64,000 nt of DNA from a virus, in IMG/VR virus record IMGVR_UViG_3300009151_009555, one strand, 5' to 3'. Below, one piece after another: positions 2,420 through 58,028 of this stretch (positions are counted from its first letter, which is position 1; the number at the start of each line of letters is the position of its first letter). The notes beneath the pieces are model-generated. The model saw only the letters and a list, made by a program, of their open reading frames with translations. It had not been told where the DNA came from and did no database searches. The translations under genes and the position numbers were made by a program.

Positions 2420-3007
2420 TTATAATTCCAATAAAGGAACCTTTGTTCCATCAACTGCAGCTTTCTTGCAAAACCCATCATATAAAACAACTTCACCATC
2501 TTGAAAAGCATAATTACCATTATGGGTTCCTCTCCAGTTTGGACTGATATCATACATAGAGTTTGCTGCTCTTTCAACCTCTACATCATATTTAGAGAAA
2601 TCACTATACTCTAATACATCAACAGGACTTCTTAGTATAAGATAAGCTTCTGTATCTCCAAACGGTATTTTCCAAACACCATCTACTTTAACAAACCCCC
2701 GTGTTTTATTTAACATACAGTATTCATATAAGAATGGTGCCTCATGATAATCAAAGGTTATTTTAAAGACCTTACCATTATCTAATGAGAATACTGCACC
2801 AAAGACGCCGGCACCTAAGAACTCTTCAATCTTTCCAAACCTACTTTCAAATCTTTCTATATCTAAAGAATCGATAAACTTATCCATATTTTTTTCAACT
2901 TGTTCACTAACGATGTGTGATCTCATTATTAAGGATCTAAATCCTTTTCTTAATATGTCTTTTGTATTACTGGATACCATTTCATTAAATTTTCTAAGAT
3001 GTTTCAT
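2420..3007 (-). CDS. MK-N-terminal family member (MKHLRKFNE); possible protein-kinase-like ATP-binding fold
   Basis: N-terminus MKHLRKFNE. Contains a glycine loop LGAGVFGAV followed by VFKI (a VAIK-like lysine) and a DGF triplet. The upstream minus-strand sequence reads TATATAGTATATATG. Confidence 0.45.
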   Translation of the reverse strand: MKHLRKFNEMVSSNTKDILRKGFRSLIMRSHIVSEQVEKNMDKFIDSLDIERFESRFGKIEEFLGAGVFGAVFSLDNGKVFKITFDYHEAPFLYEYCMLNKTRGFVKVDGVWKIPFGDTEAYLILRSPVDVLEYSDFSKYDVEVERAANSMYDISPNWRGTHNGNYAFQDGEVVLYDGFCKKAAVDGTKVPLLEL

Positions 3008-3070
3008 ATATACTATATATATTTTTTGATTTTAAAAATAAATATATACTCTAATAAAATAAATACTATT

Positions 3071-3532
3071 ATGAAATACATTAAGTTATTCGAAAACTTC
3101 TCTGAAGAACCAAACACAATTACTGTTAAATTTTATGGTGATGATTTTATGAAACATTATTGGGAAGGAAGTCAAGGTATTAAAGTTTATCAAGAACATG
3201 GATTCGCTTCTAACTTTAAAAATCTTCAGGGTAAAGGTCATACAACTTATGGAGATGGCGGACTTGAAATGGAAAAAGATTATTATTATCCGCTATTTAA
3301 AGTAGTTGATAAAGAAAATATAAAAAATTCCTTCTGGTATTATATTGTATATGGTGGTGATGAAATAAATATAGTTCAGTCTTCAGAACATTCAGATCAA
3401 GGTATTGATATACCAAATAATTTCAATTCTTTAAAAACCATTACTCATAATTGGTATTGTAAATTTGACAATGGTGTTATTCCAGGTGAAAAAGACCACA
3501 GAGGATACTTTGAGATCGTATCTGTTAAATAA
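3071..3532 (+). CDS. MK-N-terminal family protein (MKYIKLFENF)
   Basis: ORF 2999..3532 trimmed to the ATG at 3071, which is preceded by AAATATATACTCTAATAAA. Confidence 0.55.
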   Translation: MKYIKLFENFSEEPNTITVKFYGDDFMKHYWEGSQGIKVYQEHGFASNFKNLQGKGHTTYGDGGLEMEKDYYYPLFKVVDKENIKNSFWYYIVYGGDEINIVQSSEHSDQGIDIPNNFNSLKTITHNWYCKFDNGVIPGEKDHRGYFEIVSVK

Positions 3533-3554
3533 TCTAAGAAAAAAAAATACTATT

Positions 3555-4031
3555 ATGAAACACATTAAAACATTCGAATCATACTCTGTAAACGAGAACT
3601 GGATCGGCGACGCATGGAACTGGATCAAAGAAAAACTTACTTCATGGATTTCTCGCTTGACTGGAGACTTCAAAGAAGGAGCTCAATATGCTATAGACTG
3701 GATCAAAGACAACTACGATATGATGAAAGAAACTGTAGAAGGATTAAGAAAAGCATCCGAAGTAGAAATAGAAAAGTTATTTAACTGGGTTAAATCTATT
3801 ACTTTGAATACAGACCAGATGATTCCTGCTATGGAGTCAGCAGAAGAATCTAAATCTATTCTAGATAAGATAGCTCGTATATCAGGAGCGTCTATTGCAA
3901 CTCTAGCTTGTTTTGGTGGTCCAGTAGCAGCACTTGCGGGATTGATTATGAGTAATGGTGTATTGTTTTTAGCAGGAGCTGTAGCTGCGGTAATCGCTTG
4001 GTCGATAGTTTCTGCAGTAGGAAATGAATAA
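3555..4031 (+). CDS. MK-N-terminal family protein (MKHIKTFESY) with C-terminal transmembrane helices
   Basis: ORF 3465..4031 trimmed to the ATG at 3555. The C-terminus is hydrophobic and Ala/Gly-rich. Confidence 0.55.
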   Translation: MKHIKTFESYSVNENWIGDAWNWIKEKLTSWISRLTGDFKEGAQYAIDWIKDNYDMMKETVEGLRKASEVEIEKLFNWVKSITLNTDQMIPAMESAEESKSILDKIARISGASIATLACFGGPVAALAGLIMSNGVLFLAGAVAAVIAWSIVSAVGNE

Positions 4032-4057
4032 GATAAAAAAATGAATAAGATAAAGAT

Positions 4058-4519
4058 ATGAAACATTTAAAAAGATTTAATGAAAGTAAAGAAGAAGAGT
4101 TTGATGTGGAATATATCAGACATTGCTTTGTAGATATAATCGACGAATTCAATCTAAAGATAGAAGATAAAAGCTTTAAAGAATATGATATGACAGATAA
4201 AGTGCACACAGAAGTTCCTTGTCTACAGATTGTAATCGACTTACCTAGGCTTAATGGAAGAATAGCTTTTGTAGGAGAAGTAAGCGAGTTTGAAAAGCAA
4301 TATGGTTTATGTAATGCTATAGAGGACTTGGTAAAAGCGAGCTCGGATCTAGCTAAGATATTAGAGACGGTGGATGTGGCGATTAAAAGATTGTCTGACG
4401 AATTTCCAGAGTATAAGTTCACTAACAACCATATCAATGATAAGTTGAAATCAAGAGTTCTATATGCGACTAAATCAGATGGTGATAAACCAAAGATGTT
4501 TATAACTATAACGAAATGA
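4058..4519 (+). CDS. MK-N-terminal family protein (MKHLKRFNES)
   Basis: ORF track. Same first 10 residues as the protein at 5012. Confidence 0.55.
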   Translation: MKHLKRFNESKEEEFDVEYIRHCFVDIIDEFNLKIEDKSFKEYDMTDKVHTEVPCLQIVIDLPRLNGRIAFVGEVSEFEKQYGLCNAIEDLVKASSDLAKILETVDVAIKRLSDEFPEYKFTNNHINDKLKSRVLYATKSDGDKPKMFITITK

Positions 4520-4974
4520 AAAGAATAAAAAGTTTTAAGTTATTCGAATCGGTCGATCCTGAAATAGTAGAGAAGGTATGTTCTTTATACGAGGATGTAA
4601 GGTCTATCGGGCATATCTTAGAAGAAGAAGGATTTGAGCCAGAGTATAAGATAACAGTGGTGTGCGTTCCTGAAGGAACTCTTCAGAAAGAGGTCAGAAC
4701 CATTCAGGTCAGAAAATCTGAAGAGATCAGAGGGTTCTTGAGAAGATACAACTTTATGAAACTGAGATGCTTCGTAGTAACTATAAGGAATGCCAATCCA
4801 AAAAATCTTGATCATAAAGAGTCTATTGATTTTTTCAAAGAAGAGGTCGATAGGTATTTCGCACTGTTGAAGGATCATCTGGATTATGTTCCAGAAGAGC
4901 ATATAAAAAAACAGATTTGGCATTCTACGGGACCGTACTATGATATATCTATATCTTCTGATTTTTTCAAATAA
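4516..4974 (+). CDS. MK-N-terminal family protein (MKRIKSFKLFES)
   Basis: ORF track. ATGA overlap with the upstream gene. Confidence 0.55.
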   Translation: MKRIKSFKLFESVDPEIVEKVCSLYEDVRSIGHILEEEGFEPEYKITVVCVPEGTLQKEVRTIQVRKSEEIRGFLRRYNFMKLRCFVVTIRNANPKNLDHKESIDFFKEEVDRYFALLKDHLDYVPEEHIKKQIWHSTGPYYDISISSDFFK

Positions 4975-4977
4975 TAT

Positions 4978-4994
4978 TTAATATATACTCTAAT
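4978..4994 (+). promoter_or_regulatory. class-A promoter-like motif TTTAATATATACTCTAAT, 18 nt upstream of the ATG
   Basis: One of at least 18 instances of the same motif immediately 5-prime of plus-strand MK-family genes. Confidence 0.5.
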
Positions 4995-5011
4995 AAAAAA
5001 ATAAACTAACT

Positions 5012-5410
5012 ATGAAACACTTAAAAAGATTTAACGAATCTGAGATACCAAATCCACATGCGTGGAGAAATAAGCCAGCTGCAGAAAAAGAAACAAACGT
5101 CTTAGATATGGTAAGAGGTGGTGATGTAAATGCTCTTGAAGACTTCTTACATGCAAATGAAGCAGACTTAAAAAGAAATGTTACTATGGCTGCAAAGTTT
5201 TCGGCACCAGGTACTCGTCATCAAAATAATGAAATATATGATTATGTAATGGATCACTATATCGATATAATCGATATGGAAGCTGTTGCTAAATGGTTGA
5301 AATATGACAGATCACATCGTGATTACGTGGCTTCAAAGTCTAATGGAAGAGACATTGATAGTGAAGGTAATGATTGGTATGGTTTCGATCATCCAGAAGA
5401 TCTTAAATAA
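5012..5410 (+). CDS. MK-N-terminal family protein (MKHLKRFNES)
   Basis: ORF track. Preceded by TTTAATATATACTCTAAT at 4978..4994 and followed by a terminator. Confidence 0.55.
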   Translation: MKHLKRFNESEIPNPHAWRNKPAAEKETNVLDMVRGGDVNALEDFLHANEADLKRNVTMAAKFSAPGTRHQNNEIYDYVMDHYIDIIDMEAVAKWLKYDRSHRDYVASKSNGRDIDSEGNDWYGFDHPEDLK

Positions 5411-5414
5411 TATT

Positions 5415-6251: not shown

Positions 6252-6881
6252 ATGAAGTACATAAAATTATTCGAAGCAAAAAAGACATATACACAGAAGT
6301 CAAAAGAACTTTATGATAAGTTTAATTCGCTTATAGACGAAGCGACCAAAATAGAAGTAGAGGATGTCATGAGATCCATTTTCGACATAACCGGATCGCC
6401 AACCAGCGAAAGTTATTATATAAGATGGAGTGTAAAGGGTACTAATAAGGCAGGCATTACATCGCCGCTTTTCCATGATGTGGATACTTATAAATTGGTC
6501 AAATACGCCTATGACAATCTTTTGCTGGGCAATCTTACTATGGATGCTTCTCTTTCCTATGATATTCAGTCGGTTAGAGATGAATTACTAGAGTTGGTAG
6601 AAGATGAAGTGGTTTATGTAAAGGAAACTTTAGAGTCTATGGGATATGAGTTTGACTACCAAAAATACGTTCCAACAACTGGTTCGCCCACCATAAGATT
6701 TCGTGTTATCAAAAAGGACGTGGATGGCTCTTCTATAATAGAAGATAGGGAATACTATTCTTCTTTGCCTAAGTCTATAATAAAGCCTTTTGGTTTATTT
6801 ATGATGCAGTACAAGGTTCCTGATGAAAAGGCCGCAGAGTTCGCCAATCTGTTGGGATCCGCTGACTGGTCCAAAGAATAA
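6252..6881 (+). CDS. MK-N-terminal family protein (MKYIKLFEA)
   Basis: ORF track. Preceded by TTTTTAATATATACTCAT directly at the ATG. Confidence 0.55.
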   Translation: MKYIKLFEAKKTYTQKSKELYDKFNSLIDEATKIEVEDVMRSIFDITGSPTSESYYIRWSVKGTNKAGITSPLFHDVDTYKLVKYAYDNLLLGNLTMDASLSYDIQSVRDELLELVEDEVVYVKETLESMGYEFDYQKYVPTTGSPTIRFRVIKKDVDGSSIIEDREYYSSLPKSIIKPFGLFMMQYKVPDEKAAEFANLLGSADWSKE

Positions 6882-6891: not shown

Positions 6892-7806
6892 ATGAAGTGG
6901 ATAAAGTTTTACGAGAATTTCAGACCGTCTGGTGGAATCCTTCCGGTCAGAGAGTTAAGACTAGAAGAGTTGAAAGAACTGCTTCGTAATAATTGTAATG
7001 ACTTTTTGGATATACTAAAGTCAGTAGACTATGACCTTGTCGGGGCGAAACAAAGTTTACTTTTCAGGAGGTCTCCAGACATGGGCGAAATTGTATACTC
7101 TAATCCAGGAAGTGCCGGCCACGAAAGAATAGCTCCTTATTCTCCGGTGGGTAACTACCATAACCTGATTATTTCTAATTTAGAATCATGGAAAGAGTAT
7201 CCAAAAAGAAACAAGTCTATATGTACTGGTAGATTCTCTAGGATAGAAATAGCACATGGTAAAGAAATCTATCTGGTTATACCATACGATAAAACAAGAA
7301 TAGGTATATCTCCAAGTATGGATATGTGGTTTGCTTTTAAAAAATTAACAAAGTATAAAGTACTTGCACCAACTGGAAATCAAAAATTTGATTATGAAAC
7401 ACCAGGATTGATTACAGACTGGTTCAAAAACATCATCGACGTGGTCTCTAAAAAGGCGGGATCACAAATAAGCGATGTTAGTTGGGCTGCCTTAAAACCT
7501 TATTTAGACCAAAGATACACTGATTTTGCCAAGGTTAAATACCAGTCACAGCCGGTTTCTAAAAAAGTAGAAGCACCTAAGTACTCTTATTTCCCTGAAT
7601 ACGATAGGAATCAAACACTACTCAATAATCTTGAAAGAGTATTAGATCCAAATGCACACGGGTTTAGTATTGGTTATATGAAAGACCTTCCAAGCATCTT
7701 CAGTCAAAAAAGTGCGGAATGTTGGTTTCAAGACGATTGTTTAATGGTCAAATGGAACCTTCTAAAAGATAAAGGAAAAGAAGAGATTCGTTCTATGTTC
7801 GAATAG
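6892..7806 (+). CDS. MK-N-terminal family protein (MKWIKFYENF), 304 aa
   Basis: ORF 6823..7806 trimmed to the internal ATG at 6892, which carries the family N-terminus. Confidence 0.5.
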   Translation: MKWIKFYENFRPSGGILPVRELRLEELKELLRNNCNDFLDILKSVDYDLVGAKQSLLFRRSPDMGEIVYSNPGSAGHERIAPYSPVGNYHNLIISNLESWKEYPKRNKSICTGRFSRIEIAHGKEIYLVIPYDKTRIGISPSMDMWFAFKKLTKYKVLAPTGNQKFDYETPGLITDWFKNIIDVVSKKAGSQISDVSWAALKPYLDQRYTDFAKVKYQSQPVSKKVEAPKYSYFPEYDRNQTLLNNLERVLDPNAHGFSIGYMKDLPSIFSQKSAECWFQDDCLMVKWNLLKDKGKEEIRSMFE

Positions 7807-8037: not shown

Positions 8038-8778
8038 ATGAAGTATTTAAAGAAATTCGAACTCTTCGAGAAGAAAGAAGAGAAATACACTGGCAAGAAT
8101 AGAATCATTCTATTAGGTCCACCAACTATTGGTAAATCAACTATTTCTAAGGCATTAGGTGAAAAGCTTGGATTAGAGGTTATATCACTTGATATGAACC
8201 AAATGAAGTTTGGTGGCTTCGGTGAAAAAGAAGAAGTTGAATGTGTAAAATGGACTCTTTCTAATAAAGTAAACACTCCAAGTATATTGGACTTTGGAGG
8301 TGGACATATCTACCAAGGAAATGCTAAAGATTTAATTAAAGGATATAATAACGTATTCGTTTTAATACCAAATGAAGACTATGAGTTAAGCAATGATATA
8401 CTGAGACAGAATTCAAGAACCCACGATATGAGAAAAATGATAGATCATATCTTAAATTCTCTTAAAAGTCCACGTTGTGAATTCTCAGATGATAAGAAAG
8501 AAAAAGCTATTGAGATTGCAAAGAAGATACATTCTGGTGGTACAGGTAAATTGGAAGAGAGTGATATACCTAAGGCAAGTTTAGATAAATTTGGTGAGGG
8601 TTTAAAAGGTGGATTTCATTCGGCTCCTAATTGGGATAAATACACCAACATGTATACTAAAAGACATGATAAGATAAATAGAAGTATAACAGATAATATC
8701 ATAGAAGCCTTTACTGAAAAGGGAAATAGAAGGTCTAAGTCTGCTATTGTAAATGATATTATAAAGAAATTGAAATAA
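8038..8778 (+). CDS. P-loop nucleotide/nucleoside kinase-like protein with MK-family N-terminus (MKYLKKFELFE)
   Basis: Walker A motif ILLGPPTIGKST, then a short kinase-like core (shikimate/adenylate-kinase-like arrangement). Confidence 0.5.
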   Translation: MKYLKKFELFEKKEEKYTGKNRIILLGPPTIGKSTISKALGEKLGLEVISLDMNQMKFGGFGEKEEVECVKWTLSNKVNTPSILDFGGGHIYQGNAKDLIKGYNNVFVLIPNEDYELSNDILRQNSRTHDMRKMIDHILNSLKSPRCEFSDDKKEKAIEIAKKIHSGGTGKLEESDIPKASLDKFGEGLKGGFHSAPNWDKYTNMYTKRHDKINRSITDNIIEAFTEKGNRRSKSAIVNDIIKKLK

Positions 8779-9583: not shown

Positions 9584-9931
9584 ATGAAACATATTAAAAA
9601 ATTTGAAAGTTTTTCTACTAATGAAGAGATAAGCTTTAAAGGAATCGCAGCAGGTGCGATGATGGCACTTATGACTGCTTGTCATAACGGTGAAGTAAAC
9701 GGTGAAGCATCAGATGTTTATACAGGTGATATGCTTGTTAAAAGAATCGAGATGGGTGGTGGAAAGCACAACTTTTTCTTAGTACACGGTGAAGACGAGC
9801 AAGGTAAACATGTTGAGTTTGCAACAGACAACCTTACTTTCAACGTAGGAGATTCTATACACGTCAACTTCGATAGTGAAGAAGCTTATCCTTTAGATGA
9901 TAGAAGCAATGTAGCAGAAATTGGATCGTAA
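9584..9931 (+). CDS. MK-N-terminal family protein (MKHIKKFESF) with a lipoprotein-like MALMTAC segment
   Basis: ORF track. A cysteine follows a hydrophobic stretch near the N-terminus. Confidence 0.5.
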   Translation: MKHIKKFESFSTNEEISFKGIAAGAMMALMTACHNGEVNGEASDVYTGDMLVKRIEMGGGKHNFFLVHGEDEQGKHVEFATDNLTFNVGDSIHVNFDSEEAYPLDDRSNVAEIGS

Positions 9932-12391: not shown

Positions 12392-12988
12392 ATGAAATGG
12401 ATTAAATTATTCGAAGACTTTAACGGTGATGTATTAGAGGATGCTAAGGATATTCTTAGGCTTCACTTAGGTGAACTGGAAGAGATAGACTTTATCGGTG
12501 GAGTTCTTCAGGTCGAGATGTCGGATAAGTTAAAGGATCGAATAAGAGTCTATAAGTTATTAGAATCTCCTAATGTTAAGGATTTGAAAGCGTGTGAAGA
12601 ACACCTTGAACAAGAGACTGAAGGAGTTTCCTGGAACATCAACCTGGATTGGTATAGTGGACAGGTAGCCATCATCGGTATTGGTGAATCCATTGAGGAG
12701 TTTTTAGGTGAATGGTTGAGAGAAAGGTTTTCTGGATTGAAGAAGTTTGTTAGGGACCTAAAGAATGTAGGAGAAAGGAAACAGATATTCTACAGCGAAG
12801 GAAATGGTTTCGGAGTGTTTTACTACTACGAGGATGACACGCAAGACAAATCGGTTCATGTTTCCTTTCAAAAGATATGGGGCTTCTTCGGAACCGTTCT
12901 TTGCTTGGAAGATAGTCAGATAAGAACTATAGTTCATGAATGGCTACTTAAAGACTTCGGTCTTGATCTAGAACCAAAAATGTGGTAG
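12392..12988 (+). CDS. MK-N-terminal family protein (MKWIKLFEDF)
   Basis: ORF track. Preceded by TTTAATATATATACTAT at the ATG. Confidence 0.55.
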   Translation: MKWIKLFEDFNGDVLEDAKDILRLHLGELEEIDFIGGVLQVEMSDKLKDRIRVYKLLESPNVKDLKACEEHLEQETEGVSWNINLDWYSGQVAIIGIGESIEEFLGEWLRERFSGLKKFVRDLKNVGERKQIFYSEGNGFGVFYYYEDDTQDKSVHVSFQKIWGFFGTVLCLEDSQIRTIVHEWLLKDFGLDLEPKMW

Positions 12989-12990: not shown

Positions 12991-13392
12991 ATGAAACATA
13001 TAAAAACATACAAGATTTTCGAGTCTAGCCAGATATGGGACTTAGAAGACATTTGTCAAGAGATAAAGGACGAAGGGTTTAATGTTCTGATAAAAGGCGT
13101 AGAATGGGGAAAGACTCCATCATCTTTAGGAGAGGCGAAGGTAGATATAACTAACGGAAGCAGAAGAGGAAGTGGAATATCAGGAAGCAACTTCACGATG
13201 GTTCAGTCTATGAGAGACTTTCTTTTCAGACTTAAAGATTGGGCTAGAGAAGAAGGCTACGAGATATACGTGAGAAGTAACTATGGAATGCTACAGTTGA
13301 TTGATGACGGAAGAATCTTAGGTAGTGGATGTACGTGCTCTCCAAGGTACCCAGGCTTTACGATGCTTGAAATAAGCTTTGCTAAATTATGA
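12991..13392 (+). CDS. MK-N-terminal family protein (MKHIKTYKIFES)
   Basis: ORF 12982..13392 trimmed to the ATG at 12991. Confidence 0.55.
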   Translation: MKHIKTYKIFESSQIWDLEDICQEIKDEGFNVLIKGVEWGKTPSSLGEAKVDITNGSRRGSGISGSNFTMVQSMRDFLFRLKDWAREEGYEIYVRSNYGMLQLIDDGRILGSGCTCSPRYPGFTMLEISFAKL

Positions 13393-13982
13393 AACATATA
13401 AAGACATACAAGATTTTCGAGTCGGTTGAGTTGATAGATCGAGATGACATGGAAGAAATACTTCTTCCTCTAAAGGATATAGGAGTGGAATATGAAATCG
13501 GAGGAGAGCAGATTTTAGGAAAGGATTTTGTTTCTTTCGAGATAAGCAAATTCAAAGTAAGAGCATTGACTGTCCCTGATTTTACCAATATTACTAATAT
13601 GGTTGTCAATAGGGGTGAGATTTATATGGCTTCGTTTGATCCAAGACGAAACACTTATATGATTCTGAATCATGATGGTGGGAATGCACAAGAGTTTGTT
13701 CATGCGTCTCATTTAGAGATTATCGGATACAAATGGAAAGACTTACGTGACGAGGTTCTTCACCTTGTTTCTTTTATGCTTGATGAAGGTTACTTCTTTT
13801 TCTACAACAACAGTATAAAGATATCCGAAGTTGTAAACCCTAAGGGAAAGGGTTTGACATGGATGGAAGAAGATGTTTTAAACAAGACTGCTGGAAAGGG
13901 AATAGAGATGCTTGAGTCTTTGAGTCCTGAGGCTAGTATAGCGGAACTAAGGATTTCTTTTGCAAAGAAGCTAAATTCCTAA
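13389..13982 (+). CDS. MK-N-terminal family protein (MKHIKTYKIFES); tandem paralog of the preceding gene
   Basis: ORF track. ATGA overlap with the preceding gene and an identical 12-residue N-terminus. Confidence 0.55.
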   Translation: MKHIKTYKIFESVELIDRDDMEEILLPLKDIGVEYEIGGEQILGKDFVSFEISKFKVRALTVPDFTNITNMVVNRGEIYMASFDPRRNTYMILNHDGGNAQEFVHASHLEIIGYKWKDLRDEVLHLVSFMLDEGYFFFYNNSIKISEVVNPKGKGLTWMEEDVLNKTAGKGIEMLESLSPEASIAELRISFAKKLNS

Positions 13983-18439: not shown

Positions 18440-19486
18440 ATGAGAAACTATAGATTAGAACAAGCATTCAAAACCTACAATAGAAGTATGGATGCGATAT
18501 ACATGGAACTTTATTCTTTGAAAGAATCTTGTTCTCCAAAGGAATGGACTCTTTTAAGAGAAACCTTCTTTGACAAAATAAAAGCGGTCATTGGAGGCAC
18601 AGCACATGCTGCTGGTAAAGCGGTAGGAAACGTTACTGGTGCGATAAGCAAATCAGTGGACTATGTTCATGATTTAGGAACTTCTGTATATGATAAAGGA
18701 GTAGAGCTTGGGAAGAAAGCGGTAGAGGTTACTAAAGACTTTTATAACAAAGCAAAAGGTGCTATTACTCAAGGTATCGAATCTATTAAAAAAGCACCAG
18801 GACAATTATGGGACTCAGTTACAAACTTATGTTCAACAGTTGCAGGTGAGATTGCAGAGACTTATAAAAAAGCAAAAGAAAAAGGTGAAGAATGGTTAAA
18901 AGCGGCTAAAGAAACAGCGGTAAACCTATATACTTCAATGGCAGAAGGGTTGACAAACTTATACGCATCTACAAAAGAATGGGCGACTAAAAATATGGAA
19001 GCATTCAAAAAGATGGTTATTGAGAAAAAAGCTGAACTTTTAGAAATTGCAACATCTGCGATGAAGTCTGCCAATGAAGCTATCAAAGATCTTGGTATAG
19101 CTGCTACAAAATATTTTGAAAAGTTTAAAGATGGTGCAATCAAAGTAGGTAAGAACATAGGACTGCTTGTAGGTGTATTAGTTGGTCTTCCTTTATATGG
19201 AGTTTATATAATGACCAAAAAGACTTATGAACTTGGTAATGATTTAGGTGCTGCAGCAGCAGCAGGTTTCAATAAACTTAAAGCAGGATTAGCAAATTCA
19301 TGGGAAGAGATAAAGGGTATTGGTGCAGAGATATCAAAACAATTCAAAGGTGGAAAAGAAGAAGCGGATGCAGCGTGGAACAATTTAGATGATGAACAAA
19401 AGGTAAAGATGGCTGGACAATTTGCAGGACTTGCAGTTGCAGAATCTTTTAGATATTTAAAAACATTTGAATCTTTCAATAGATAA
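18440..19486 (+). CDS. alpha-helical repeat protein (apolipoprotein/LEA-like), 348 aa
   Basis: Repeated K-A-x-x-x-A amphipathic units with a hydrophobic segment near the C-terminus. Possibly a structural or membrane-associated protein. Confidence 0.5.
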   Translation: MRNYRLEQAFKTYNRSMDAIYMELYSLKESCSPKEWTLLRETFFDKIKAVIGGTAHAAGKAVGNVTGAISKSVDYVHDLGTSVYDKGVELGKKAVEVTKDFYNKAKGAITQGIESIKKAPGQLWDSVTNLCSTVAGEIAETYKKAKEKGEEWLKAAKETAVNLYTSMAEGLTNLYASTKEWATKNMEAFKKMVIEKKAELLEIATSAMKSANEAIKDLGIAATKYFEKFKDGAIKVGKNIGLLVGVLVGLPLYGVYIMTKKTYELGNDLGAAAAAGFNKLKAGLANSWEEIKGIGAEISKQFKGGKEEADAAWNNLDDEQKVKMAGQFAGLAVAESFRYLKTFESFNR

Positions 19487-19533: not shown

Positions 19534-20241
19534 ATGATAAAGAAGTATAAAGATTTTTCAATTAACGAAGCGAAGGCTACCGAAGACGAAGAATATGACG
19601 TAAGACAGATATTGGCGGAACTTACACAGGATCTGGGATTCGAATTAGAACTAAGTAAAATTTATTATTCTGATAATAAAACACAATGGCATGAGAATTT
19701 CGACACACTTTGCCAAAATCCTGTTTTAAGAATACATCTTACCAAAAAGAACGAGCGTCTTGAAGAATCTACGATAGAAAAATTGCTTCCTTCAGTGCAT
19801 GAATGTGTGGATAGACTATCCGAGCTAGGAGAAGCAGAACTTATGAAGTTTTCTTTGGCAAGACCATATGTTACCAACAATACACTTGTCGATATTTTGA
19901 TAATGGTGACGATTGACGAAAAACCGGAGATTTCCGACCTGCCAGGGTTCTACGACTTTATAGATACTTTGAACAGAAGCTGGAGAAGCTTGAACAACAA
20001 AGTGACAAGATCATTCTCTATTGGAGAAAAAAACAAAGAGTCTGTTGTTCTGGAAAGGGAAGAGCATGGTGTTGCGACGTTTACAGAAGTTAAAGCATTG
20101 ATTAGAAAGATTTTCAATCCGTGGCCAAACAGAACTGGAAGAGAGTACGAATATGAGTTTCAAAAAGAAGGAGACAATGTAAGAATAAAATACAAAGGCT
20201 ACAAAAGATTGGACCGTATGGGTAGAGTAGTAGTTGATTAA
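19534..20241 (+). CDS. hypothetical protein, 235 aa (MIKKYKDF..., a weak family N-terminus)
   Basis: ORF track. TTTAATATATACTCT sits at the ATG. Confidence 0.5.
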   Translation: MIKKYKDFSINEAKATEDEEYDVRQILAELTQDLGFELELSKIYYSDNKTQWHENFDTLCQNPVLRIHLTKKNERLEESTIEKLLPSVHECVDRLSELGEAELMKFSLARPYVTNNTLVDILIMVTIDEKPEISDLPGFYDFIDTLNRSWRSLNNKVTRSFSIGEKNKESVVLEREEHGVATFTEVKALIRKIFNPWPNRTGREYEYEFQKEGDNVRIKYKGYKRLDRMGRVVVD

Positions 20242-22771: not shown

Positions 22772-22887
22772 AAATAGTAAAATACTTCAAATTATTCGAA
22801 AGTAGGACTGCTGAGATTACAGACAAAGAGTTTGTGATGTTGGTTAAAGACAACTGTAAAAACTACTTAGCAAACCCTAAATACTAA
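22768..22887 (+). pseudogene. truncated 39-aa member of the MK-N-terminal family (MKIVKYFKLFES...), followed by an ORF-free remnant
   Basis: The family N-terminus is intact but a stop comes after 39 codons. Positions 22888..23055 carry no ORF in any frame. Confidence 0.35.
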
Positions 22888-39092: not shown

Positions 39093-39731
39093 ATGAAAAT
39101 ATTAAAATCATTCAAAGTTTTTGAAAGTGGTCTTCTAAGTGAGGTTCCTACTCATTTTATCCCACTCAATAGTGTTGGATACTATATAGATCCAAATGAT
39201 GGTATGACTTATGCTATGTTGAAAAATGGTGGATATGAAGACGAACCATATCCGTCAGATGAAGTTTTTGAAGAGGATGGTGAACCATGGGAAGTACTTT
39301 CCGACGAAGATAAAGCTACAGTAAACTCTGTATGGAGAAGTTGTGAGGAAGTGGTAAAGCCTTTGATAGATTGGAATCTTATAGAAGATATCAAAGATGT
39401 TGCTTTAGCAAACGAGATATTCGACAAGGGATATACTTTAAAAGTAGAGGTCAAAGAACAAGACGTTGCAGAAAACATCTATGTTGAATGGATCGCTCAT
39501 GATAAAGACGACAAACACTATTATAAATTCTTCAAACAAATTTTTAGTCAGATAGAAAACACCAATGGTGATTTTTCTTATAAGATATCGGTATATAGAA
39601 AAGGACCTGCTGGAGGATATTTACCAATACCCAAAGGATCAAAAGATGAGATAGATGTTTTAGAAATGATTGCACAGGTAAAAGGAATGAATCCTGATAA
39701 AGAGTTAAGAATATTCTATTCGAAATGGTAA
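39093..39731 (+). CDS. MK-N-terminal family protein (MKILKSFKVFESGLL)
   Basis: ORF track. Its N-terminus closely matches the minus-strand gene 45784..46326 (MRIIKSFKMFESGLP). Confidence 0.5.
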   Translation: MKILKSFKVFESGLLSEVPTHFIPLNSVGYYIDPNDGMTYAMLKNGGYEDEPYPSDEVFEEDGEPWEVLSDEDKATVNSVWRSCEEVVKPLIDWNLIEDIKDVALANEIFDKGYTLKVEVKEQDVAENIYVEWIAHDKDDKHYYKFFKQIFSQIENTNGDFSYKISVYRKGPAGGYLPIPKGSKDEIDVLEMIAQVKGMNPDKELRIFYSKW

Positions 39732-45783: not shown

Positions 45784-46326
45784 TTATTTTATGTTAAAAG
45801 TAAATTTTATGGTTCCGTCTTTCAAATCATCTGGTTCCTGTTCTAGTTCATCGAGTGCTTGGTTGAATTTGTCGGTTACATCTTCTATAGTCTTTGTATG
45901 TCCATTCTTTTGACCTTTTGCAGACTTTCCAAAGAATTCGAATCCTACAAAATCAATATTTCCATTTAGTAGTTCAGAAATAGCGTCTTTCAATTCGTCT
46001 GTTATAATAGCTTGTTTGAATTCTGTATTAAGTTCAGAGTATTTTAGATTGGTTCCTCCTGTAACAACTTCTTCACCCCATTCGTTTTCGTGTTCATCCC
46101 AATAGTCAGCAAAACGTAATACAACTTCTATCATAGTTCCAAATTTGCTTTCGTTAGGTGTTATGAATACCAAATATTGTTTTTTCAATTTCTTTCCGTC
46201 TTTTTCGTAAGTTGCATTTGGATAGTAGTGTCCATCTAATATTTCTTTTATTCTTAATTTTATTGGCTCATAGTCTTTGTATGGAAGTCCAGATTCGAAC
46301 ATTTTGAAACTTTTTATTATTCTCAT
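45784..46326 (-). CDS. MK-N-terminal family protein on the minus strand (MRIIKSFKMFESGLP)
   Basis: ORF track. The first 15 residues closely match 39093..39731. Confidence 0.5.
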   Translation of the reverse strand: MRIIKSFKMFESGLPYKDYEPIKLRIKEILDGHYYPNATYEKDGKKLKKQYLVFITPNESKFGTMIEVVLRFADYWDEHENEWGEEVVTGGTNLKYSELNTEFKQAIITDELKDAISELLNGNIDFVGFEFFGKSAKGQKNGHTKTIEDVTDKFNQALDELEQEPDDLKDGTIKFTFNIK

Positions 46327-46352
46327 TTTTTAAAATTGTACTTTATGTATAT

Positions 46353-46393
46353 ATAAAAAAAGCGTGTCAAAAAATTGACACGCTTTATAAAAT
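46353..46393 (-). terminator. terminator GCGTGTCAA-AAAA-TTGACACGC with T7 on the minus strand
   Basis: 9-bp stem, downstream of the minus-strand gene 46409..46837. Confidence 0.55.
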
Positions 46394-51433: not shown

Positions 51434-52563
51434 GAGTAGCAGTATTCAACAACTATAAAGAGCATCTTTTTGTAGATCCTAAACCTACAGGTATAAGAAA
51501 TGTGATAGATTATGACAATATAGGAAATATTGTATTCTTAGAATCCATTTCAAGAGAACTGGATGCGGATTCTATAAGCATTTATGATTTTATACTAAAC
51601 TATAAATTGTATGAAGAAAGATATGATATGCTCATACTTTCATTAGCAAATATGGTTTCTCCTGGATATAGCATTTCTGAAGATTTTATGACGGCGTTGG
51701 AGAAGACCAAGATACCAATCTGTATATTCTCAATAGGAGTTCAGGCACAGACAGAAGATGAGCTTTATAAAAATACATTGAGTTCAAATGTTAGAAGAAT
51801 ATTAGAACTATCTAATAAAAGTGGAACAACTATTGGATTGAGAGGTGAGACGACAAAGGCTTATTTAGATAGAGAAGGAGTCAAGAACACGCATGTAATT
51901 GGATGTCCGTCACTGTTCTATAAGAAAAGCATACCTATCAAAAATGGAACTGGACCGAAAGATATATTACTTAGTGGTGGGTTTGAAGGATATTGGAGAG
52001 ATCCTCTATCGAAGATGTTCAATTTTGGATATAAATATTGCAGGTCCTATCTGGTCCAAAGTGAGTCCAGGATTCTATTTGACAAATATAAAATATCGGA
52101 GATAGAGTTGAATACATGGAATGTTTCCAAAGAAAAGAAATCATATCTGATGTGCAGAGGTTATGACTATCTTTATTATTGTCATCCGAATCTAGACAAA
52201 TTAGATTTGGAAAATTGGTTTATAGATAATTCGATTTTCCTAAACGATTTTGATAATTGGATGGAGTCGATGAACACGTATGATATGCATATAGGTGCTA
52301 GGTTTCATGGATCTGTTATGAGCACACTAGCTGGAGTACCTACGTTGATATTGGTAGGAGATTTAAGAGTTAAGGAGTTTGTGGAATTCCACGGTTTACC
52401 AAACATGAACATCTTCGACTTCGATGAAGATGTTAAGCCAAAAGATTTATATGATATGATTGATTATCAAAAATATGAAAGTAGATATGATAATCTTAAA
52501 TCTAACTACATCGGATATTTGAATAGAAATGGCTTGGAGTTTAAGTTAAATCCAACCCTCTAA
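51430..52563 (+). CDS. polysaccharide pyruvyl transferase-like protein (CsaB/WcaK family), tentative
   Basis: ORF 51376..52563 trimmed to the ATG at 51430, which overlaps the GT stop (ATATGA). The C-terminal block MHIGARFHGSVMSTLAGVPTLIL resembles the conserved C-terminal region of pyruvyl transferases. Confidence 0.4.
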   Translation: MRVAVFNNYKEHLFVDPKPTGIRNVIDYDNIGNIVFLESISRELDADSISIYDFILNYKLYEERYDMLILSLANMVSPGYSISEDFMTALEKTKIPICIFSIGVQAQTEDELYKNTLSSNVRRILELSNKSGTTIGLRGETTKAYLDREGVKNTHVIGCPSLFYKKSIPIKNGTGPKDILLSGGFEGYWRDPLSKMFNFGYKYCRSYLVQSESRILFDKYKISEIELNTWNVSKEKKSYLMCRGYDYLYYCHPNLDKLDLENWFIDNSIFLNDFDNWMESMNTYDMHIGARFHGSVMSTLAGVPTLILVGDLRVKEFVEFHGLPNMNIFDFDEDVKPKDLYDMIDYQKYESRYDNLKSNYIGYLNRNGLEFKLNPTL

Positions 52564-54405
52564 GTTATTAAGTCTTCTTTTCAAAGATTGAAGTAAATAA
52601 CGGTTTGCTTTGATATAGTCTTCGTCGTTCAAGAAATCTTTGTTGTCTGGCTCATTAAAGACTAATCTTTTTTGTCTTCCAGAACCTAATACTCCTTCCA
52701 TGTTTTCTATCTGGTTTATCTTCTCTTTTAAATCTTTAAGTATTGTTTGCTTAGTCATTGCATCCATTTTGTAGTTGTACGCAAACCTGTCAGTCCAATA
52801 GAAGCTCTTCTCATTTGTTTTAAGTCCAAGTGCTTGACAATCTTCTGATATAAAGTTTCCTTTCTCAGTTTTGAAGACTTTTACACCATGGTCGTTGAAG
52901 TAGTATTTTCCGTTTTCTCCTTTGCTGAGTACGTCACCTGCAATATAGTCGCTGTCGTGTTCAAACTTTTTAAGATATTCTCCACACTCCATACTATCAA
53001 GACTCACCATGTTTTTGTCTTGGTCTGAAAGTGTTTCGGTTCCTGTTCTACATTCTTGTAGGTCCGAATCTTCTTCTATCCAGTTTATACACTGCATTTG
53101 GTCATCCTCCAAAAAGTTATCGTCGTACCATTCAGAATAAACGGAATCGTTTTCGTGTATCCAGTTTCCGGTTACACAGTCTCTTATTATAGAACTATAC
53201 TCATCTGGATACCATCCTCTATTTGATCCGTACTCGACGTGCATTGCGTCCTCTCTGTATATCCAGTCTCCCAAAGGATCTGAATAGATTGCCTCGCTTT
53301 CTGGTATTCTACAGTCGAAATAGTCAGACCATTTTCCTGAAGTGTCGTCATATGAACCATCAGTATGTGTCATTATGTAACAACCTTCGTAGTCTTCGTC
53401 ATCGTCGTTTATTAAAAGGTTTTTGGATCTCAAAAGCCTTTTGAATGTGTCCATATAAGGATACATATCGAAGTCGTGGCTTTTTAACTCTACGGTTGCT
53501 CTTAAGCCGAAGTATTCTTCATCACCTAGCTTGAAGTCTTTGCTTGCTCCGTATTGTGATGTAAGTCTTTTAAGCCATCCTTGCTTGTCTGCGTATTGTT
53601 GAAACATCAATTTTGTTGCATCATCTATGGCATAGATTCTATCCATGTAGTATTCAACATTATCTATGTTAATCTCTTTTATTTTCCAGATTAGAACTCT
53701 TCCTCTAATCTCTTCACCATCTTCACTTTTTAGTATCAATAGTCTACAAACTTCTGGGTTTTCAGAGTAGATGTTTAAGTATTGACCACATCTTGGATAT
53801 CTCATACAAGAGCTTCCAAGCTCTCCTGTTTCGAACTCGTATTGCTTTTCGTTATACCAATGTTTTATTTCATTGCCTTCTACCAATACGAATTCTGCAT
53901 CAGTGTCTCCAATCTTTTTGAAAAGGTTTGTAAACTCTTCTACTTCTTTGTTATTGTATTTATCAGGAAAAATTTGATTTACAAGTTTGGCAATCTTAGC
54001 ATCACTTCTTGCTTTGTCTTTAAGACTCCAGGGTTCGCTGTTGTATATGTAGTTCACGTCGCTTTGTGATATCGTTCCGTCTTCTATTTTTGTATGGATT
54101 CTACTGAGTGCATCTAGTCCGACACCATGTATTTTTGTAAACTCTTCAATTGATTTCTTTAAAGAATTGACTGCTTTTTTTATTTGTGTAAATGAAAAGT
54201 ATCCTTCTTTATCAGACATACCAATAAAAGTCATATCTGGTTTTACGTCTGTATATTCGACATCTATTAAGTCTTTTGCAATCTTATTTTTTAAACTAAG
54301 TTTGTATAAAGAATCTTTGAACTCTTTTGTATAATAAATCATTGATTCATTTACTACGTTCTCAAACAATCTTTCACCTAAAAATGTGTTATATCTTGAT
54401 ATCAT
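52546..54405 (-). CDS. large acidic protein, 619 aa; paralog of the N-terminal domain of 35747..37273
   Basis: Shared block HWYNEKQYEFETGELGSSCMRYPRCGQYLNIYSENPEVCRLLILKSEDGEEIRGRVLIW. The C-terminal half is Asp/Glu/Trp/Tyr-rich. Confidence 0.6.
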   Translation of the reverse strand: MISRYNTFLGERLFENVVNESMIYYTKEFKDSLYKLSLKNKIAKDLIDVEYTDVKPDMTFIGMSDKEGYFSFTQIKKAVNSLKKSIEEFTKIHGVGLDALSRIHTKIEDGTISQSDVNYIYNSEPWSLKDKARSDAKIAKLVNQIFPDKYNNKEVEEFTNLFKKIGDTDAEFVLVEGNEIKHWYNEKQYEFETGELGSSCMRYPRCGQYLNIYSENPEVCRLLILKSEDGEEIRGRVLIWKIKEINIDNVEYYMDRIYAIDDATKLMFQQYADKQGWLKRLTSQYGASKDFKLGDEEYFGLRATVELKSHDFDMYPYMDTFKRLLRSKNLLINDDDEDYEGCYIMTHTDGSYDDTSGKWSDYFDCRIPESEAIYSDPLGDWIYREDAMHVEYGSNRGWYPDEYSSIIRDCVTGNWIHENDSVYSEWYDDNFLEDDQMQCINWIEEDSDLQECRTGTETLSDQDKNMVSLDSMECGEYLKKFEHDSDYIAGDVLSKGENGKYYFNDHGVKVFKTEKGNFISEDCQALGLKTNEKSFYWTDRFAYNYKMDAMTKQTILKDLKEKINQIENMEGVLGSGRQKRLVFNEPDNKDFLNDEDYIKANRYLLQSLKRRLNNLEGWI

Positions 54406-55152: not shown

Positions 55153-55154
55153 TT

Positions 55155-56041: not shown

Positions 56042-56453
56042 TTCCTAAAAGTTTTGTAAGGTTTGCGTTTCTGTTTATAATATTGTCTCCACCAACAAGC
56101 TTTTTGATATGATCGACTGAATATTTGTATGATGTTCCGTTTGGTGCTTGTGCAATGACCGGGTATTTTCTATTCTTTGTTTTGATGTCTGTGATGATCA
56201 TCTCTCCCATGTTTGCATTAAACGACAAGCCGATTACGTTTTGAGTAAATCCTAATCTACGGCATATACCTTCATAGATAGAATCTACTTTCTCGCTTTT
56301 TTCGGTAGTCGAAACTTTCATTGTCGCTGAATAGTATGCACTGTTGTATTTTATGGATCCAAAAGATATGGATACACCTTCTTCTTTTTCGATTTGAGCA
56401 ATTGCTGCTTGTATCTTCGCTTGTACTTTGTTTATCTTAGTATCTGTTATCAT
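56034..56453 (-). CDS. hypothetical protein
   Basis: ORF 56034..56480 trimmed to the ATG at 56453 (MITDTKINKV). Confidence 0.4.
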   Translation of the reverse strand: MITDTKINKVQAKIQAAIAQIEKEEGVSISFGSIKYNSAYYSATMKVSTTEKSEKVDSIYEGICRRLGFTQNVIGLSFNANMGEMIITDIKTKNRKYPVIAQAPNGTSYKYSVDHIKKLVGGDNIINRNANLTKLLGND

Positions 56454-56528
56454 ATCTTTTCCCTTTCTACAAATATACAAAAAATGCCGATATAAAATAT
56501 ATCGGCATTAAAAAAATACTAAAAAAGA

Positions 56529-56849
56529 TTATTTCTTCTCACCAGTAATAATCTTGACATTGGTTGTAACTGCGTCCATCATGTCTTTCATTGCTTCGTG
56601 ATAAGCGATAAAAGCTTTGTGGTACTTCATGTTGTTTTCCAATATCTCTTTCGAGTTTTTAAGAGTAGATTCAGTTCCTTTGGTGAAAGTATTGAATACT
56701 TCAAATGGATTTGTGAACATGTTCTTAACAAGCTCGTTTGTATCCAAATTGGATTTGGATTTCTCAGACATGTCTTTATAGACAGTTGTCAATGTTTCTT
56801 TTTGAATTTCGGCCATCTTTTGCCAGTTTTCCATTATTTTTTCTATCAT
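56529..56849 (-). CDS. hypothetical protein, 106 aa
   Basis: ORF track. Confidence 0.45.
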   Translation of the reverse strand: MIEKIMENWQKMAEIQKETLTTVYKDMSEKSKSNLDTNELVKNMFTNPFEVFNTFTKGTESTLKNSKEILENNMKYHKAFIAYHEAMKDMMDAVTTNVKIITGEKK

Positions 56850-56869
56850 ATCTATTTTATTTAATTTTT

Positions 56870-57301
56870 TTAAAAAGTTGGAGGTTCTATCAATTTTTCT
56901 GAAGATTCTTCTTCATTTTTAAGATTCTCTGCAACATATTCCAAATAATCAATATTTTGCTTAGTACTTTCTGTGACATTATCGGAATATTCCAAAATAG
57001 AATCTATTTTAGTATCTCTTTCTAATATTTTGAATTTCTGTTTCAGAAAATCTTCAATCTCATTGCTGAAGCTTACATTGTTCTTCTTCAGCTCGTCGTA
57101 GTATGGTTTTCCCAATACATTGAGTGTTGATATCATCATTGCTGTAGTTCCGTCTATATAACCAGATACTTCTACATCTTCTCCCAATATGTGGTACTTT
57201 GTTTTAGCTATAGTAGTAGTATTGAAAATAGTTCCTTGTAATCCACTACTACTAATCGTGGTAGAGTTGCTATTGTAATATGGATTTAAATGTATTGCCA
57301 T
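56870..57301 (-). CDS. hypothetical protein, 143 aa
   Basis: ORF track. Confidence 0.45.
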   Translation of the reverse strand: MAIHLNPYYNSNSTTISSSGLQGTIFNTTTIAKTKYHILGEDVEVSGYIDGTTAMMISTLNVLGKPYYDELKKNNVSFSNEIEDFLKQKFKILERDTKIDSILEYSDNVTESTKQNIDYLEYVAENLKNEEESSEKLIEPPTF

Positions 57302-57386
57302 ATTTTTTATATTAAATATTTTGAAAAAGTTGAAAAACGGGTTTTAAAAGTAAATATATACAATATAAAAAAATAAAAATTATAAT

Positions 57387-58028
57387 ATGAAACATATTAA
57401 AACATTTGAAAGTTTTTCTCCAGTAAATGAAGAATTCTTAGGATTGGACAGACTTTGGGATAAAGCTAAAGATGCTGTTTCTGCTTGGGCTGACAGAAGA
57501 AAAAAAGCTGCGGCTGAAGGATTACTACAAGTTATTGATTCAAAAGGAGAAGATCCAGAAATGCAAAAAGCATTAGCTGATATGAAAGCGGCTGCTACAA
57601 GATTATCTCCAGAAGATAAAGAAATTATTGCTTCTTTTGCAGAAGGAAATATTCCTGAAGTTCCAGAAGGACCTGAAGATGTTGAGATTAAAGAAATTGC
57701 GGAATCTTTGAGAAGTAAAAAACTTATCAGAGAATCTATTCAGATTATTTTAGAAGAAGAAGGTTTGGCCGCAAAAATCGCTAAATACTTAGGTTTAAGT
57801 GTTGCTTCTATTTCTTTTGTTACTTGCATTATAAGTGTTATCAAAATGGCTATTATAGGTCATGGATATACTGTGATATTTGCAGGATTAACATTAGGAA
57901 CTATTGTAGGAATCTTAATGGGTGCTACTTTCTTAGCAGCTATTATTGGTGGTATAGGTTATGCTAATGATATGGAAGATCCAAAACCGAGAATTCCATC
58001 TGGCCGTCCACAACCACGAAGAAGATAA
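57387..58028 (+). CDS. MK-N-terminal family protein (MKHIKTFESF) with C-terminal TM helices and a Pro/Arg tail
   Basis: ORF track. TAAATATATACAATAT lies 17 nt upstream. A terminator follows at 58044..58077. Confidence 0.55.
   Translation: MKHIKTFESFSPVNEEFLGLDRLWDKAKDAVSAWADRRKKAAAEGLLQVIDSKGEDPEMQKALADMKAAATRLSPEDKEIIASFAEGNIPEVPEGPEDVEIKEIAESLRSKKLIRESIQIILEEEGLAAKIAKYLGLSVASISFVTCIISVIKMAIIGHGYTVIFAGLTLGTIVGILMGATFLAAIIGGIGYANDMEDPKPRIPSGRPQPRRR

Follow-up and report, generated by a model that had tools for sequence, protein, structure and literature searches.

A shared N-terminal leader on unrelated proteins of large uncultured phages: a candidate capsid address

INTRODUCTION

Why should proteins that resemble one another in nothing else begin with the same ten residues? 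The question is raised by 64,000 nucleotides (nt) of viral DNA, IMG/VR virus record IMGVR_UViG_3300009151_009555 (hereafter the window, meaning the whole stretch that was analyzed), which has ~34% guanine plus cytosine (GC) and is densely packed with small open reading frames (ORFs). A preliminary description made from the letters alone had counted ~19 otherwise unrelated proteins starting with MKHIKTFESF or a variant of it, a start that we call the leader. We argue that the leader is a genuine N-terminal peptide under selection, that it is carried by probably late genes of large uncultured phages, and that it may act like the capsid-targeting sequence (CTS) of phage T4.

A COMMON LEADER ON UNRELATED PROTEINS

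In a six-frame regular-expression scan for ORFs of 35 aa or more whose first ATG opens M[KR]x[ILV][KR]x[FY], which we call the canonical leader, the window yields 17, against a chance expectation of 0.12 on average and 1 at most in 100 second-order Markov simulations of the window. A degenerate DNA pattern for MKxIKxFExF has four matches in the window and none in 100 shuffles. The gene at 21857 (MKYLLEFDQY) is a weaker, eighteenth member, and five more genes, starting at 1683, 19534, 35747, 54405 (minus strand) and 27118 (minus strand), carry a degenerate leader that ends in [FY]x[DE]Fx[ILV]NE or similar. Leader proteins of the window are 39 to 304 aa long, and their genes make up ~14% of its gene complement. 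All 18 genes listed in the preliminary description are real, and its total becomes 18 (17 canonical, one weak); most of its gene starts also hold, the exceptions being 2420 and 45784, which are the stop ends of minus-strand genes with true starts at 3007 and 46326. The bodies are as unrelated as it had supposed, since all 17 members remain BLASTP singletons at E ≤ 1e-4 once their first 16 residues are removed. Pfam gives nothing above threshold for any window member, and megablast of the window against the phage collection yields no nucleotide-level match.

The leader extends far beyond this window. It is present in at least 120 IMG/VR stretches, many of which hold 2 to 15 leader genes within 15 kb or less, on contigs of up to 501 kb, and it is retained across phages of 21% to 46% GC. 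Among 261 non-identical leader proteins, positions on which no selection was made extend the consensus to M-K-[HY]-I-K-[LT]-F-E-x-F-[ILV]-N-E, also given as MKHIKLFE[EQ]F[ILV]NE, and information content is at background beyond residue 13. Because an upstream in-frame ATG is absent in 248 of 270 instances and an upstream stop lies at a median of four codons, these leaders are true N-termini. Certain subtypes recur across phages, among them MKHLKRFNES and MKxIKSFK[LIVM]FES, the latter with an apparent internal repeat.

What follows the leader varies freely. The 261 proteins form 205 BLASTP body clusters, and the bodies contain unrelated domains (ankyrin, GNAT, AAA/MoxR, ATP-grasp, cytidylyltransferase, PAP2, CHAP, amine oxidase and others); in the protein from locus L100, the Pfam domain starts at residue 18, right after the leader. 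The window protein encoded at 8038 has weak Pfam matches to P-loop NTPases in which profile position 1 is aligned to residue 22, so that its first 21 residues form an extension before a normal kinase-type start. Metagenomic homologues of the 6892 protein retain the leader down to 34% identity. In the jumbo phages Atu_ph07 and RsoM2USA, the homologous proteins start with other short leaders that also end in LxE (MKWNDLNE then A, and ..MTFKAFLQE then T). An AlphaFold2 model of the 6892 protein assigns residues 1-18 a pLDDT of ~26 and is confident in parts of the body; it is poor overall (mean pLDDT 54), too poor for a fold search.

Several more familiar explanations of a shared start could be set aside. 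A host-encoded family is excluded by the absence of any strict-pattern match in 185,579 bacterial and archaeal genomes, in which the loose pattern finds mostly single matches in ordinary cellular genes (Dcm methylases, for example) and a few phage-like metagenome-assembled contigs. A paralogous family with a shared N-terminal domain is excluded by the lack of BLASTP similarity between bodies and by the different Pfam domains directly after the leader, and a Sec, Tat or lipoprotein signal peptide by the amphipathic, charged character of the leader (K2, K5, E8, E13), which has no hydrophobic core; strongly hydrophobic 19-mers are found only in the 3555 and 57387 proteins, C-terminally in both, and the signal-like segment of the 9584 protein is a separate element after the leader. 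A reading of the leader as a recombination linker was also rejected. The leader matches no Pfam family, and neither its peptide strings nor a description of it was found in the searchable literature, where keyword searches led only to work on T4, P1, SPN3US and bS21. Two apparent carriers were discarded: a 5'-3' exonuclease (L118), where the pattern falls on an internal Met and is a regular-expression false positive, and a Pfam Gp23 match among 150 representatives, which could not be traced to one protein and was not used; T4 gp23 tblastn matches lie in leader-less ORFs.

Leader-like sequence is twice seen away from an N-terminus. In L101 (709-1830, plus strand), the leader MKYIKTFESFLNE stands at residue 229 of a 373-aa ORF, right after ..KLINE-NNNIN, and the ORF looks like two fused genes with protease-type sites flanking the junction on both sides. 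In the window, a 348-aa protein (18440..19486, plus strand) has the leader-like C-terminus ..FRYLKTFESFNR-stop (..YLKTFESFNR; 19448..19486), which directly precedes a hairpin terminator and then the next copy of the promoter-like box described below. This end may be what is left of a downstream gene that was lost, or else the signal may have been copied to a C-terminus; the protein also has a hydrophobic segment and weak similarity to tape-measure proteins.

SELECTION ON THE PEPTIDE

A shared start could reflect constraint on the peptide or on the nucleotides that encode it. Of the 534 pairs of identical residues in codons 2-8 of the window leaders, 215 are encoded differently, where the codon usage of the bodies predicts 252, and synonymous sites are ~85% randomized; no two leaders are identical in register for more than 20 nt in a row, and their first 24 nt agree at 68% of sites on average. 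In the 261-protein set, codon usage at F7, E8, F10, position 11 and E13 is indistinguishable from that of the bodies, Ser at position 9 is drawn from both AGY and TCN, and Leu at position 6 from both CTN and TTR. Replacements are chemically conservative: I/V/L at position 4, F/Y at 7, F/Y/W at 10, and K/R at 2 and 5. Near-random synonymous sites combined with conservative replacements indicate that selection acts mainly on the peptide; the preliminary description had concluded from the variation of third codon positions that it does so at least in part. Conservation at the nucleotide level only, which it had set against the idea of a sorting signal, is disfavored by the near-random synonymous sites. 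The only nucleotide preferences seen are for AAA at codons 2 and 5, for C-ending codons at position 3, and for A-ending codons at position 6, and slight biases of this sort in the RNA are to be expected around start codons in general.

LEADER PROTEINS IN T4-TYPE HEAD MODULES

The carriers sampled are uncultured large phages that probably infect Bacteroidota and that have T4-type head genes wherever a head module was within reach. The DNA before leader genes is rich in A from -20 to -1 and Shine-Dalgarno-like in 12 of 203 cases, a pattern typical of Bacteroidota initiation regions. Window proteins have their best relatives in uncultured megaphages, LR756502 (642 kb) being the closest, with others in jumbo phages and phages of Cellulophaga. 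When two leader proteins were used as tblastn queries, the matches were to uncultured megaphages only, or there were none. The leader is absent from the whole genome of Cellulophaga phage phi38:1, the last 50 kb of Tenacibaculum phage PTm1, 41 kb of Flavobacterium phage MaF61, and the head regions of Lak-C1 and LR756500.

Searches by tblastn with T4 gp20, gp21 and gp23 reveal a T4-type head module in many leader-bearing loci (L005, L032, L061, L086 and others); LR756502 and the 74 further modules described below also have one. By PHROG profiles, the head maturation protease is fused to a scaffold-like region, and the phages encode a gp55-like late sigma factor as well as gp2- and gp4-like proteins, LR756502 included. 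The major capsid protein (MCP) is nearest to those of LR756500, Prevotella Lak megaphages, Sphingomonas phage PAU, LR756502, and Tenacibaculum and Flavobacterium jumbo phages. An MCP-alignment search added 80 loci, 74 of which contain portal, protease and MCP together, and in all 74 a protein of 110-140 aa lies between portal and protease. This intervening protein has a canonical leader in 41 of the 74 modules; the other 33 have recognizable leader variants in all but three (a 265-aa protein of L305, L306 and L315), for example MKMKIIKTFEEFVAE then A, MKIKTFNQFITE then A, or MKNDFKIIKTFEDFIAE then D, most of them ending in [ILV]xE with A, D or S next. Modules of the L061 type run gp2-like protein, portal, ~113-aa leader protein (MKIIKTFEDFISE then A), protease-scaffold, MCP. 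T4 encodes its prohead-core proteins gp67 and gp68 in the corresponding slot between portal and protease; ten of the head-module leader proteins, scanned with PHROG, received no informative annotation. Other arrangements exist, with two leader proteins between protease and MCP in L051 and two leader genes directly upstream of the portal gene in LR756502.

Many leaders also end in a pattern that fits a prohead-protease site. Of the 261 leaders, 51% have an [ILV]xE that ends at position 8 and 39% one that ends at position 13, compared with 1.4% per body position, and E13 is followed by Ala or Ser in 46% versus a background of 11.5%; in the window, 13 of 17 tabulated members have [ILV]xE ending at positions 8-17. 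MCPs of the head modules begin with MANL[IL]NE followed by AEI(R/K)xTW, a predicted cleavage site MANLINE|AEI that parallels the FLTE then AEIGG of T4 gp23. Cleavage of gp23 falls between the E and A of FLTE|AEIGG. The T4 protease gp21 cuts after Glu in L/I-x-E (PMC9026906).

In a subgroup of the head modules of L271-L350, the MCP starts MANLINSAEV in place of MANLINEAEI, with Glu replaced by Ser at the predicted cut, and the neighboring leader protein begins with MKHL[KQ]TFKN[YF]SNLTE then D. Leader and protease specificity may co-vary in this subgroup.

A PROMOTER-LIKE BOX SHARED WITH HEAD GENES

Many leader genes follow a promoter-like box, TTTTTAATATATAC(T), composed of a T-run and TAATATATAC or AAATATATAC. 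It lies upstream of 11 of the 17 canonical leader genes and three degenerate ones and of 0 of 22 window genes whose products have the C-terminal tag described below (Fisher odds ratio 12.6, p=1.2e-5 for canonical members; p=6e-8 with degenerate members). The six canonical members without it (4058, 4516, 6892, 12991, 13389 and 22768) are all operon-internal. The box is separated from the start codon by 4-8 or 21-26 nt. On the plus strand of the window, copies are at 1670, 3040 (3040..3048), 4979, 6238, 8007, 9552, 12377, 18405, 19521, 21844, 35734, 39080, 43026, 48086, 54438 and 57352; minus-strand copies have their first base at ~3024, 27132, 46357 (46349..46357) and 54419.

In L017, L043, L061, L032, L086, L051 and LR756502, the same box or its GATATATAA variant stands before head genes, among them those for portal and protease-scaffold. 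Genes that have the box and no leader include those for portal, protease-scaffold and MCP in the relatives and for the glycosyltransferase at 48119 in the window. The T4 late promoter is TATAAATA, similar to the box. This likeness, the position before head genes and the gp55-like sigma factor of these phages together suggest that the box is probably the late promoter of the carrier clade and that the leader genes are late. The short spacing to the ATG may give rise to leaderless or nearly leaderless mRNAs.

A CANDIDATE ADDRESS AND ITS RIVALS

We hold with moderate confidence that the leader would be an N-terminal address of ~8-13 residues on unrelated late proteins, acting much as the T4 CTS does. 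The proposal draws directly on the peptide-level conservation, the add-on architecture, the distribution over viral contigs, the placement in the head module, the protease-site pattern and the association with the box. We infer the following course: the amphipathic stretch MKxIKxFExF at the start, hydrophobic at positions 4, 7 and 10, would dock onto the scaffolding core or the protease-scaffold of the prohead; docking would enclose the cargo in the head; a gp21-family prohead protease would then remove the leader at [ILV]-x-E, as ..KLFE| and/or ..F[ILV]NE|A/S; and the cargo would presumably be ejected with the DNA into the next host. The T4 CTS had been named as an analogue in the preliminary description, and the analogy is strengthened by a head-module protein that has the leader, a gp21-type [ILV]xE|A/S ending, and a box common to head genes. 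Its suggested FE|S cleavage site fares less well, as [ILV]xE fits only part of the window members.

A number of observations weigh against this proposal. Four or five of the 18 window leaders (those at 4058, 5012, 9584 and 3007; at 6892 the first is at 21) have no [ILV]xE within 20 residues, and the window leaders are of the short form (MKHIKTFESF..), mostly without the [ILV]NE part. The window itself contains no head genes, which leaves the link to a gp21-type protease to be made via relatives only, and in LR756502 the MCP lacks an obvious LxE propeptide. Compared by HHalign with T4 gp67 and gp68, the head-module leader protein resembles neither. No cultured carrier was found in PTm1, MaF61, Lak-C1 or LR756500 (each in part) or in phi38:1 (whole). 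Some carriers would be odd capsid cargo, such as the lipoprotein-like precursor at 9584 and, elsewhere, cytidylyltransferases, ATP-grasp enzymes and a PAP2 phosphatase; the share of leader genes in the window would imply an unusually large packaged proteome; and most window members are acidic, with an isoelectric point of ~5. Finally, a modest third-position bias exists at codons 3 and 6, with A-ending codons preferred and T-ending ones avoided at the latter.

A possible though doubtful alternative is that the peptide serves as a handle for a destination other than the capsid. The conserved amphipathic N-terminal helix, typical of late proteins, would then bind a single partner in common, which might be a chaperone of phage or host, the membrane, a compartment for replication or assembly, or, with the leader as a timed degron, a protease or unfoldase. 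Such a handle agrees with the conservation of the peptide and its hydrophobic periodicity, the very broad cargo with its metabolic enzymes and membrane- or lipoprotein-like proteins fits a capsid poorly, and the existence of a second, C-terminal tag on another class of genes suggests a general tagging logic. A handle of this kind leaves unexplained, however, why the conserved head-module protein between portal and protease has the leader and why the leader has the [ILV]xE|A/S ending in common with the MCP N-terminus; it also comes with no candidate partner, and the motif has no Sec/Tat-type hydrophobic core. That the leader is instead a translation or expression element, its first 8-13 codons tuned for initiation on Shine-Dalgarno-less Bacteroidota ribosomes, perhaps phage-modified, or suited to leaderless or short-leader mRNAs that start from the TAATATATA box, we consider unlikely. 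The box lies 4-8 nt from the ATG in about half of the cases, upstream regions are A-rich with the few Shine-Dalgarno-like instances noted above, and the codon preferences (AAA at codons 2 and 5, C-ending at 3, A-ending at 6, with T-runs avoided) would all suit such an element, as would ribosomal protein bS21, which is encoded beside head genes in related Bacteroidetes phages and has been proposed to favor late phage transcripts (PMC9723584). Yet synonymous sites are largely randomized, codons for F7, E8, F10 and E13 are used as in the bodies, substitutions keep the chemistry of the residues and not the bases, six window members are operon-internal and box-less, portal, protease-scaffold, MCP and glycosyltransferase genes have the box and no leader, and the enrichment of Ala and Ser after E13 has no obvious translational rationale. 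The same findings disfavor the constrained leaderless initiation region that the preliminary description had offered as its alternative.

It is more improbable still that the leader is a functionless leftover, descended from an ancestral gene or cassette (promoter, start and first codons) that was duplicated and recombined while the bodies diverged or were swapped. The recurrence of leader subtypes across phages, the frequent co-occurrence of box and leader, the leader-like C-terminus of the 18440 protein and the leader inside the fused L101 ORF could all be vestiges of such a history; however, 10-13 residues would not stay conserved at 21-46% GC without selection when synonymous sites are randomized, the bodies have unrelated Pfam folds, and identical runs of at most 20 nt, with a mean identity of 68% over the first 24 nt, are a poor substrate for homologous exchange.

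LEADER GENES OF THE WINDOW

The first canonical leader gene, 2420..3007 (minus strand; 195 aa), begins MKHLRKFNEM, of the MKHLKRFNE subtype, and has a glycine-rich kinase-like loop in its body and a box 8 nt upstream; those that follow up to 13982 lie on the plus strand. Genes 3071..3532 (153 aa, MKYIKLFENFSEE; box 22 nt upstream) and 3555..4031 (158 aa, MKHIKTFESYSVNE), the latter with a C-terminal glycine-rich hydrophobic segment (maximum KD19 2.32), are followed by 4058..4519 (153 aa, MKHLKRFNES; no upstream box), whose end forms an ATGA overlap with 4516..4974 (152 aa, MKRIKSFKLFES, a subtype with a two-residue insertion). Then come 5012..5410 (132 aa, MKHLKRFNES; box 24 nt upstream), 6252..6881 (209 aa, MKYIKLFEAKK; box 5 nt upstream), 6892..7806 (304 aa, MKWIKFYENFRPSGG), 8038..8778 (246 aa, MKYLKKFELFEKK; P-loop NTPase/kinase-like domain from residue 22, box 22 nt upstream) and 9584..9931 (115 aa), in which MKHIKKFESFSTNEE is followed by a lipoprotein-like signal (..LMTAC). 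A further group consists of 12392..12988 (198 aa, MKWIKLFEDFNGDVLE; box 6 nt upstream) and the box-less 12991..13392 (133 aa, MKHIKTYKIFESS; operon-internal) and 13389..13982 (197 aa, MKHIKTYKIFESV), which meet in an ATGA overlap.

Farther along, the weak member 21857..22771 (plus strand, 304 aa, MKYLLEFDQYLSDD; box 4 nt upstream) has an ATGA overlap with the smallest leader gene, 22768..22887 (plus strand, 39 aa, MKIVKYFKLFES). The remaining canonical genes are 39093..39731 (plus strand, 212 aa, MKILKSFKVFESGLLSE; box 4 nt upstream), 45784..46326 (minus strand, 180 aa, MRIIKSFKMFESG; box 21-22 nt upstream) and 57387..58028 (plus strand, 213 aa, MKHIKTFESFSPVNEE; C-terminal hydrophobic segments, box 26 nt upstream).

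Degenerate leaders open 1683..2414 (plus strand, MNYITTTYSEFMLNE then T, 243 aa), 19534..20241 (plus strand, MIKKYKDFSINE then A, 235 aa) and 35747..37273 (plus strand, MNSKLFRYSDFLNE then S, 508 aa), each with a box 4 nt upstream; 52546..54405 (minus strand, MISRYNTFLGERLFENVVNE then S, 619 aa; box 4-5 nt upstream), a paralogue of the 35747 protein; and 26870..27118 (minus strand, MKKDFKKFSEITE then S), which encodes 82 aa if read from the ATG at 27118.

The two paralogues (508 and 619 aa) have a GSSCMRYxRCxxYLxIY core in common, and the 35747 protein ends in a run of CxxC zinc-knuckle-like repeats. Homologues of this family number up to 15 per genome in megaphages, LR756502 included, and one in Cellulophaga phages (Calle_1; phi38:1 gp037); Pfam and PHROG give no annotation for either paralogue.

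A SECOND, C-TERMINAL TAG

A different class of window proteins is marked at the other end. Twenty-seven proteins of 70-702 aa, whose bodies are mutually unrelated, share the C-terminus R-[ED]-x-K-L-x-x-[LI]-G-[IL]-stop, and almost all of them are encoded on the opposite strand. Their stop ends are on the minus strand at 1, 619, 10641, 10859, 11113, 13971, 16310, 17170, 20238, 20713, 23280, 25305, 25517, 26050, 26492, 31329, 34176, 34574, 34805, 35372, 37274, 37495, 55583, 58340, 59677 and 63121, and on the plus strand at 45413. None of the 27 has the N-terminal leader, and no gene of this class stands behind the TAATATATA box. In 19 of the 27 genes the DNA ends in GGAATATGA or a close variant, whose stop overlaps the ATG of the next gene, so that the tag is possibly shaped in part by translational coupling; it is also kept where no gene follows, as at 13971. 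The tag occurs in 15 IMG/VR loci on contigs of 8-476 kb, most of them >80 kb, with up to 10 copies per 15 kb, and several of these loci also have the leader and the box. We take it to be loosely like C-terminal clamp-binding tails such as QLVLGL.

As a tentative extension of the capsid proposal, the two tags might between them address much of the accessory proteome: the leader would load dozens to >100 late proteins (kinases, acetyltransferases, ankyrin and membrane-active proteins) into the capsid for co-injection, and small proteins of another class, which may be early, would bear the C-terminal tag for a different partner in common.

OTHER GENES OF THE WINDOW

Translations of the regions 27931-28800 (minus strand), 61889-63124 (minus strand), 46409-48027 (minus strand) and 48119-52563 (plus strand), as read, suggest an accessory sugar or modification module. 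Its predicted products are two Dcm-type cytosine methyltransferases, a YqeY/GatB-like protein, a SIS-domain (phosphoheptose isomerase-like) protein, and a putative 1104-aa multi-domain glycosyltransferase followed by a 395-aa protein.

IMPLICATIONS AND COMPARISON WITH KNOWN SYSTEMS

Whatever its destination, a 13-residue tag on >200 unrelated protein families in phages of such different base composition is an unexplained addressing system. If it is a capsid address, it offers a sequence-only readout of the injected proteome in a large uncultured clade of jumbo phages and megaphages, flagging hundreds of orphan genes as candidate first-minute effectors or anti-defense proteins, and it would provide a ready tag for protein delivery by Bacteroidota phages. 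Should many leader proteins be co-injected, the effector arsenal would go far beyond the T4 internal proteins; the CTS principle would then be ancient and scaled ~tenfold in huge phages, which bears on the evolution of huge capsids and genomes.

Known systems share parts of this design. In Firmicutes, the host protease Prp removes a short leader, ..KLNLQFFA|S, from ribosomal protein L27 and from the capsid and scaffold proteins of phage 80alpha. Here too a conserved leader is found on unrelated proteins, phage head proteins included, and a dedicated protease removes it, but the motif is another, the enzyme belongs to the host, the host phylum differs, and only two phage proteins are known to have the leader. 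In phage P1, the first 30 residues of the anti-restriction protein DarB suffice to direct it and heterologous reporters into the capsid; this signal has been described for DarB alone and bears no sequence resemblance to the present leader (PMC9024508). Phages phiKZ, 201phi2-1 and SPN3US have dozens of head-internal proteins that a distant gp21 homologue cuts after Glu, but their propeptides have only a cleavage motif (S/A-x-E) in common and no common leader (PMC9026906).

The closest parallel is T4. There, a short N-terminal leader marks otherwise unrelated proteins, IPI, IPII, IPIII and Alt (PMC9026906, PMC3012670); the CTS of IPIII comprises its first 10 residues, MKTYQEFIAE, in which residues 4 and 7 count for targeting and residues 8 and 10, through L/I-x-E, for processing (PMC9026906). 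The consensus of the present leader likewise has an MK start, a hydrophobic residue 4, Phe at 7, and a terminal [ILV]xE followed by A or S, a resemblance of pattern only; its carriers, where a head module was within reach, have a gp20/gp21/gp23-type head and a gp55-like late sigma factor, and the candidate cargo genes are likewise scattered outside the head module. In contrast, the sequence is another and three residues longer (MKHIKLFEQFINE), ten residues being too few for homology statistics, the window variants often have no second protease site, and packaging and cleavage are here proposed. T4 has a handful of carriers, as against 18-23 in the 64 kb of the window and up to 15 per 15 kb elsewhere, and the candidate cargo of the present phages, whose hosts are probably Bacteroidota, includes enzymes and membrane-type proteins. 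If the leader does work as the T4 CTS does, what would be new is its sequence and length, the scale of its use, the breadth of its cargo, the likely host phylum, and its spread over a wide uncultured clade.

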